This document shows positions 24,712-24,942 of a DNA stretch of 34,079 nucleotides, piece by piece. Source of the stretch: an uncultured Bacilli bacterium. Lineage in GTDB: Bacteria; Bacillota_I; Bacilli_A; RFN20; CAG-826. The DNA lies in the NCBI GenBank assembly GCA_944358755.1, contig CALVRY010000001.1:1-34079 (forward strand). Reading direction: 5' to 3'. Each line of letters starts with the position of its first letter. Position 1 is the stretch's first letter. The notes under the pieces are model-generated. The model saw only the letters and a list, made by a program, of their open reading frames with translations, did no database searches and was not told the DNA's origin. Made by a program: the position numbers and the translations under genes.

Positions 24712-24716
24712 TTATT

Positions 24717-24743
24717 TACTAGAAAACTACTAATAATCTACTA
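24717..24743 (-). repeat. phased TAGTA array E (3 units)
   Basis: The minus strand reads TAGTAGATTAT|TAGTAGTTTTC|TAGTAAATAAA followed by TG of the dinB start. On the plus strand, TACTA occurs at 24717, 24728 and 24739. The array fills the 33-nt xseB-dinB spacer. Confidence 0.8.
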
Positions 24744-24744
24744 A

Positions 24745-24942
24745 TTATTCACTTTTAGTCTTTTCTTCGATTTTTTTCTTTGCTTCTTGAAGAGTTACTT
24801 CTAGATCCTTTATGATTTCTTGCCCTTCTAAATATAAGTTTAAATTTTCATCTAAACTTAAATCACCAGAATCTAATTTATTGCCAATTTCTTCAAGACG
24901 ATTCATTTTTTCTTCAAATGTTGCTTGCTTTTTTCCTGCCAT
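24745..24942 (-). CDS. xseB: exodeoxyribonuclease VII small subunit
   Basis: The ATG at 24942 (MAGKKQATFEEKMNRLEEI...) has an AAGGAG SD 9 nt upstream. I prefer it over the GTG at 24951 given in the ORF track. Confidence 0.85.
   Translation of the reverse strand: MAGKKQATFEEKMNRLEEIGNKLDSGDLSLDENLNLYLEGQEIIKDLEVTLQEAKKKIEEKTKSE

Follow-up and report, generated by a model that had tools for sequence, protein, structure and literature searches.

A helically phased TAGTA array between xseB and dinB as a candidate docking site of a terminus-marking system in uncultured gut Bacilli

How is a dinB gene read when the 33 nt in front of it consist of a repeat element and hold no Shine-Dalgarno (SD) sequence? 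The question is raised by a window of 34,079 nt, the whole stretch of contig CALVRY010000001.1 analysed here, from the genome of an uncultured Bacilli bacterium (G000; 1.1 Mb, 96% complete). The original prediction held that expression of this error-prone polymerase depends on the element. The genes at the locus, and the element itself (array copy E), are as follows.

24948–26150 (−): xseA, overlapping the start of xseB by 4 nt
24745–24951 (−): xseB, exonuclease VII small subunit (Exonuc_VII_S, E 7.6e-15)
24712–24744 (−): array copy E, the entire 33-nt xseB-dinB spacer, three (T)TAGTA(G/A) units at an exact 11-nt period
23506–24711 (−): dinB, Y-family DNA polymerase, 401 aa (Pfam IMS, E 6e-49)
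22625–23509 (−): xer, Xer-type tyrosine recombinase (Pfam), with a 4-nt overlap (ATGA) with the dinB stop

The locus belongs to a tightly packed gene string, tkt-(110 aa)-nusB-xseA-xseB-dinB-xer, and copy E is the one gap in the otherwise overlapping xseA-xseB-dinB-xer operon, 6 kb from a dif-like site. The minus strand reads ...GAA TAA, then TTAGTAGATTATTAGTAGTTTTCTAGTAAATAA, then ATG GCA AGA. The TAA of xseB (24747–24745) directly precedes the first unit, and the three TAGTA cores (24743–24739, 24732–24728 and 24721–24717) are exactly 11 nt apart; the claim that the spacer contains the element only is thus borne out. The ATG at 24711–24709 is the true start of dinB, since position 1 of the IMS profile falls at residue 8, and xer, which overlaps the dinB stop, shares any transcript that crosses copy E. 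Every one of the three frames of the spacer contains a stop, ATG, GTG and TTG are absent, and xseB and dinB share a reading frame across it. A consensus scan over the minus strand of xseB and the spacer found no promoter-like site and no terminator. A near-identical 33-mer is located at 16059–16091 (2 mismatches; no such match in 100 shuffles).

The predicted lack of an SD is confirmed: positions −22 to −4 of dinB pair with the anti-SD CACCUCCUUUC at a dG of +0.1 kcal/mol, the canonical anti-SD being assumed for a metagenome-assembled genome without an assembled 16S 3′ end. SD-independent and leaderless initiation are recognised in low-SD lineages. The likeness to these lineages consists in the unstructured, A/U-rich and SD-less start of dinB, in the 44% of genes that are SD-less, and in a leaderless signature; the difference is that dinB fits neither the leaderless nor the coupling geometry. 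Leaderless-type starts were defined by a TAnnnT −10 hexamer ending about 6 (5–7) nt upstream of the start codon, whereas dinB has TCTAGT at positions −12 to −7, and its closest hexamer, TAGTAA, stops 4 nt short of the ATG. Coupled starts require an overlap or a gap of at most ~10 nt, compared with the 33 nt between xseB and dinB. The gene sits in a residual class of starts ('other'), with 30 genes that have same-strand gaps of 11–60 nt.

An SD-less start is ordinary in this genome. Among 888 classified ORFs (SD cut-off dG ≤ −3.5) an SD is present in 56% and absent in 44%. A TAnnnT hexamer ending 5–7 nt upstream of the start is found in 11% of the 888 genes, coupled starts (gap ≤ 10 nt) account for 11%, and the class 'other' for 22%. 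The TAnnnT peak is sharp at 6 nt (57 genes versus a background of ~25), is significant over the whole genome and gives the signature TAnnnT-N6-ATG. The statement that most neighbouring genes have AGGAG-type SDs was therefore too strong, as 12 of the 30 scored window genes reach dG ≤ −3.5, against the genome-wide share of 56%; xseB, which is not among these 30, has a visible GGAG SD of its own. The start of dinB is part of a genome-wide low-SD, leaderless style. Within the window, the leaderless-type signature occurs at an ispH-like gene, a DEAD helicase, ispG, plsY and an ABC permease. We note that the leaderless-type genes at 4960–5898 (−), 5955–7316 (+), 7368–8420 (−), 10234–10986 (−) and 19505–20278 (−) all lack an SD and carry TAAAAT or TATAAT exactly 6 nt upstream of the ATG.

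DinB loci were compared in 40 relatives, and 19 genomes of the genus have dinB after xseB. In 18 of these 19 loci dinB is SD-less (dG above −3.5); the only one with an SD (L014) has AAGGAGG, positioned after the array. At least two TAGTA units at the 11-nt period are present in the same spacer in 16 of the 19 genomes. The arrays run from the xseB stop toward the dinB start, the stop is often the TAG of the first unit, and the last unit is most often 5 nt from the ATG. Three loci (L006, L007, L016) have the array followed by 40–60 extra nt ending in TAAAAT-N6-ATG/GTG, that is, in leaderless geometry. The three array-less loci (L008, L013, L019; gaps of 1, 8 and 51 nt across the three) are SD-less as well, and coupling geometry is found at L013 (1 nt) and L019 (8 nt). 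In genomes from beyond the genus xseB does not precede dinB, which has its own promoter region, usually with a strong SD; the synteny dinB-xer-deoB-dif-yqeK holds in four families. The SD-less dinB tracks the fusion of dinB-xer to xseAB, which is specific to the genus, and not the array, because the three array-less loci are SD-less too. The claim that dinB expression depends on the element is not supported by this comparison, given that 44% of all genes and 18 of 19 dinB genes in the genus, including the three without array, do without an SD. Retention in 16 of 19 spacers, with the last unit near the ATG, means that the array could still matter for dinB.

Copy E is one member of a family of arrays. 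The other copies discussed here and the dif-like site are:

7313–7374 (+): array copy A, with six units that take up the whole spacer between the convergent DEAD-helicase and ispG genes
10202–10230 (−): array copy B, directly after the plsY stop
16059–16087 (+): array copy C, 17 nt upstream of the start of a yqeG-like HAD phosphatase gene and near-identical to copy E
18723–18750 (+): dif-like Xer site, at the GC-skew switch and in the centre of the array region
18843–18882 (−): array copy D, four units, ~95 nt from dif and directly after the stop of a 183-aa ORF

Strict arrays number 19 at period 11 in G000, compared with one at most for each of the other periods between 7 and 16 and with 0–2 in shuffled genomes; a reversed-pattern control gave ~0 across 41 and 121 genomes. 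The units are non-palindromic direct repeats, 2–6 per array, whose position weight matrix reads WWTTAGTADWT with filler almost free of G/C. The exact three-unit pattern is carried by 21 of the 24 genomes of the genus and turns up sporadically in other families. Where assembly is good, every exact array is on the dinB-bearing contig, within ~55 kb of a dif site (form ACTTCGTATAA-N6-TTATGTAAA) that lies at the GC-skew switch; in three genomes all exact arrays are on the dif contig, within ~20–58 kb (G024), 43–157 kb (G018) and 25–117 kb (G014), around dif. A dif-proximal array is found ~66–125 nt away on the deoB side in 7 genomes of 3 families. Copy E belongs to this family by its exact cores, its 11-nt spacing, its position 6 kb from dif and the conservation of the orthologous site.

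The genomic context of 56 arrays was surveyed. 45 of them are intergenic; 35 of these 45 have the stop of a co-oriented gene upstream, with ~22 within 14 nt of the stop. In tandem spacers, sense and antisense arrays relative to the flanking genes stand at 21:5. Eleven arrays lie within coding DNA, and eight of these run antisense to the gene. Five arrays are antisense to both neighbouring genes. With respect to dif, 22 arrays point toward it and 12 away from it, a mixture that tracks gene direction. Short spacers can be filled wholly by an array, as in xseB-dinB and also in gyrA-yqeG of G018, and one array (G000 contig C88) adjoins a start codon. The presence of arrays between convergent genes, antisense within genes and in DNA between a terminator and a promoter speaks against the element as a translation device of dinB.

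In the reading that we prefer, and hold with moderate confidence, copy E would serve a terminus-marking system as a docking array on DNA and would sit in an operon junction only incidentally, and dinB would be expressed weakly, from a polycistronic mRNA and independently of an SD; the binder and the mode of initiation are the putative parts of this reading. A T-TAGTA core plus five A/T-rich bases, repeated at a strict period of 11 bp (one helical turn), would form a docking array on double-stranded DNA, and in an order of uncultured gut Bacilli such arrays are confined to ~±55 kb around dif. The presumed binder would be a lineage-specific protein of 450–560 aa with a Fic fold whose catalytic motif is degenerate, a disordered linker of acidic character and a highly conserved winged helix at the C terminus. 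In the genus, one array became fixed at the one junction of the xseA-xseB-dinB-xer operon that was free, and the absence of an SD at dinB is a separate, genus-wide trait. SD-independent initiation within the polycistronic mRNA, at an A/U-rich stretch free of structure, is the most likely way in which dinB is read; it should be of low efficiency, since a 33-nt gap is too long for good termination-reinitiation coupling, and the predicted outcome is a low output of DinB and Xer. Copy E is not best read as a translational or SOS-like device specific to dinB. A pure DNA docking model leaves two features unexplained, namely the sense orientation of the arrays with their tendency to begin at stop codons, and the persistence of the array in the dinB spacer; both leave some room for a roadblock that gates dinB-xer.

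The candidate for the binder is encoded at the following locus.

G000:C70:1377–3041 (−): candidate binder, 555 aa, with a sub-threshold Pfam Fic match (23.2 bits)

An array (C70:3106–3145) sits 65 nt upstream of the start of this gene, right against a TTGTAA-17-TATAAT promoter. In 22 of 24 fetched loci from four families, the stretch between the end of the upstream gene and the promoter of the candidate gene holds two or more TAGTA-type units, which are degenerate in several loci and adjoin the −35 where one is recognisable. In G018, G008 and G040 the array is located between a terminator hairpin and the −35 of the candidate gene, and this array DNA is probably not transcribed. In G033 the array upstream of the candidate gene is the sole exact array in the genome. 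A search of 121 genomes from the order found strong homologues in families f1, f3, f4, f5 and f7 but none in f2, f6 and f8. The Fic-fold/winged-helix protein is encoded by every one of the 45 other array-positive genomes among the 121, while arrays are found in none of the 20 genomes without a protein match and in none of the 4 with weak matches only; the genomes are related, and the co-occurrence amounts to a handful of independent family-level events. About half of the protein-bearing genomes have no exact three-unit array. An alignment of 30 sequences reads (K/R)PFExYSEEIALL in place of the catalytic motif HPFx(D/E)GNGR, and the C-terminal 95 residues are very conserved. The motif of an active Fic AMP-transferase, HxFx(D/E)GNGRxxR, is absent from the candidate, whereas the Fic fold is kept: the AF2 model has a Fic-like domain at pLDDT ~90 and a C-terminal H-H-H-beta-beta winged helix at pLDDT ~85–90, joined by a linker predicted to be acidic and disordered, and the top PDB matches in Foldseek are all Fic proteins, including Shewanella and Coxiella Fic, with alignments of ~500 columns. 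A literature search on Fic/winged-helix DNA binders returned nothing relevant. From co-occurrence and promoter proximity we infer that this protein is the most likely binder of the arrays.

Several known systems invite comparison. Phased direct repeats serve as operators or centromeres in the OmpR, PhoB and ArcA boxes and in the 11-bp parC iterons of plasmid R1, which are bound by ParR. These share with the TAGTA arrays cores of 6–7 bp plus variable bases, placed head-to-tail once per helical turn, an arrangement that by analogy would imply cooperative binding on one DNA face. They differ in that there is no sign of a response regulator or an RHH binder here, and in that the TAGTA arrays number in the tens, keep to one chromosomal region and mark mostly the 3′ ends of genes instead of promoters. 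The core of RTP sites contains TACTAA. The Ter/RTP system of Bacillus and the Ter/Tus system of Enterobacterales resemble the arrays in having polar sites in the terminus region and a site beside the gene of the binder, but the array orientation is mixed relative to dif and does not form a fork trap. Tus was not found in G000, nor was RTP beyond a weak match of the Fur family. In the Ter/RTP and Ter/Tus systems the site adjoining the binder's own gene suggests autoregulation (PMC10331603). In Escherichia coli, MatP is a sequence-specific factor of the Ter macrodomain region (PMC8669397). matS/MatP and the arrays have in common a short specific motif about once per 10–35 kb, confined around dif, and a dedicated binder from a small protein family, which is presumed here. 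matS, however, is a single 13-bp palindrome without polarity, whereas an array has 2–6 units set head-to-tail every 11 bp, and the arrays are for the most part intergenic, run in the direction of the genes and have a Fic-fold/winged-helix protein as candidate binder; a search for MatP (PF06303) gave zero matches in G000. Together, array and protein look like an undescribed form of terminus-region marking in a large group of uncultured gut Bacilli, possibly resembling matS/MatP in function and built from helically phased direct repeats and an apparently catalytically dead Fic protein.

Among the alternatives, an effect of copy E on transcription survives best, although we regard it as unlikely. 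A protein lattice on copy E would block or attenuate RNA polymerase arriving from xseAB, and the transcription of dinB and xer would then be set by the occupancy of the array, with relief for example as forks pass the terminus, in place of the missing LexA control. The array does fill the sole operon gap directly before dinB-xer, 6 kb from dif, is retained at this site in 16 of 19 species and, like other sense arrays after stop codons, is placed as a polar roadblock would be; three species add a promoter of their own past the array, as if readthrough were insufficient. The negative searches for LexA, Cheo boxes and Rho also count in its favour. LexA (DNA-binding domain PF01726 plus S24, PF00717) has zero matches in the 96%-complete G000, and among 41 relatives 37 have no match and one match only is marginally above the cut-off; the weak matches in relatives are ORFs of ~345 aa, the size of HrcA. 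Strict Cheo boxes are absent from the whole of G000 and from the window, and the Cheo core motif occurs 5 times compared with 8.7 expected. Rho (PF07497) was likewise not found in the 96%-complete genome, while RecA and FtsK are present. The suggestion that LexA/SOS control may be absent from the lineage agrees with the lexA and Cheo-box searches. A roadblock is opposed, though, by the roughly dozen species without a promoter after the array, which must still make Xer and DeoB from the same transcript, by the array-less species, which keep the same operon, and by arrays at convergent ends, which are sometimes followed by hairpin terminators and so are not needed for termination.

A more specific proposal, which we consider quite improbable, is that in this LexA- and Rho-less lineage occupancy of the array by the Fic-fold/winged-helix protein gates transcription from xseAB into dinB-xer. 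If this were true, an error-prone polymerase and a dimer-resolution recombinase would be made only upon remodelling of the terminus, for example on fork arrival, and gating would provide a substitute for SOS control that is coupled to replication termination. The locus is the cleanest natural test bed for the question whether a protein lattice within an operon can throttle a mutagenic polymerase in a LexA-less organism.

Translational coupling is rather unlikely. Ribosomes terminating at the UAA of xseB would have to reach the dinB AUG, 33 nt downstream, by 70S scanning, with the array as a clean runway. A spacer with stops in all frames, no start codon and no structure would suit such scanning, as would the shared frame of xseB and dinB, and two array-less relatives have gaps of 1 and 8 nt, typical of coupling. 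In E. coli and Haloferax, however, coupling by reinitiation is nearly abolished at gaps of ~20 nt (Huber et al. 2023, PMC10666635), and the spacers here measure 24–50 nt; by lengthening the gap to this range, the array should therefore uncouple dinB from xseB. Three relatives have moreover switched to a leaderless-type promoter of their own.

The element could also act as RNA, with UAGUA repeats bound by an oligomeric RNA-binding protein of the TRAP or HutP kind, or by the ribosome, and controlling dinB initiation or the fate of the mRNA. UAG triplets are recognised by HutP and TRAP, and the arrays are sense-oriented and begin at stop codons. Against this stand the eight arrays antisense inside genes and the five antisense to both neighbours, the arrays in DNA between terminator and promoter, and the strict 11-nt period, which equals one turn of the DNA helix. 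The RNA of copy E is, furthermore, predicted to be unstructured (centroid fold unpaired over the spacer and the dinB start codon; z = +0.46), no stable stem-loop of the REP/BIME palindrome type is predicted, an Rfam scan of the spacer region gave zero matches, and the array-less L008, L013 and L019 are just as SD-less. Control at the level of RNA is thus very unlikely. Least probable of all is a promoter embedded in copy E, in which units 1 and 3 would supply the −35 (TTAGTA) and the −10 (TAGTAA) of a leaderless or very short-leader dinB mRNA: the TTAGTA-N17-TAGTAA geometry is present, with a 17-bp spacer, the genome does use leaderless starts (TAnnnT peak of 57 versus ~25 genes) and three relatives have TAAAAT-N6-start at dinB, but only 4 nt separate the last hexamer from the ATG, so that a start 6–9 nt downstream falls inside or past the AUG, TCTAGT at −12 to −7 has no key A at −11, TAGTAA does not end in the T of a −10 hexamer, no site is found there by the consensus scan, and the same arrays occur where no gene follows.

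For dinB, the lesson is mainly corrective: a missing SD is no sign of exotic control by the repeat.

Other interpretations of the arrays and other candidate binders were considered and rejected. Arrays do not substitute for intrinsic terminators, as ordinary hairpin terminators precede some arrays and follow others. Read as their reverse complement, TTATCTACT, some units agree with TTATCCACA at 7 of 9 positions; in general, however, the arrays are not degenerate DnaA boxes or DnaA-trios, since nothing is conserved outside T-TAGTA and a DnaA-like 9-mer is near only 3 of 56 arrays, a count that refers to arrays of three or more units. DnaA-box-like 9-mers do lie next to dif-proximal arrays in G014 and G036 (TTATCCACA) and in G018 and G024 (TTTTCCACA); those of G014 and G024 keep the 11-bp register of the TAGTA units. 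In the window, TTTTCCACA is found at 10192–10200, next to copy B. An RTP-like terminator protein was rejected, as the sole weak match to PF02334 (18.8 bits) is a 124-aa Fur-family protein beside rubrerythrin. The 183-aa ORF near dif was set aside as a binder because it is specific to the genus and not found outside it, while arrays occur near dif in other families; it has 9 homologues only, and its AF2 model (pLDDT 36) is unusable. This ORF, at 18891–19442 (−) between ABC-transporter genes and dif, is fast-evolving and has no Pfam match. Among the genomes with an exact array listed nearby, an array directly follows its stop in G000, G001, G002, G003, G019 and G020.

Some arrays deviate in position or composition. 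The array at 29749–29788 (−) lies on the sense strand inside the ORF at 28899–30704 (−), where one unit has degraded to AAGTA and the frame stays open. The array at G000:C41:1847–1897 is antisense in a coding sequence and also conserved in G001 and G093; its fillers include G/C. Filler preferences are species-specific, with GTTTTC/GTTTTT in G009 and G000 and ATTATT/TATATT in G013 and G024, as expected under co-evolution of site and binder or concerted evolution of the arrays. A second dispersed repeat in G000 comprises ~31 copies of TTGC(A/G)AGGTTTTT, with the extended consensus AAATAGTTGAGATTTGCAAGGTTTTT. Its copies, such as those outside the window at C14:9723 (−), C8:11466 (+), C24:4842 (−) and C44:8503 (−), are mostly intergenic, form no hairpin and are sometimes located directly before a TAGTA array.
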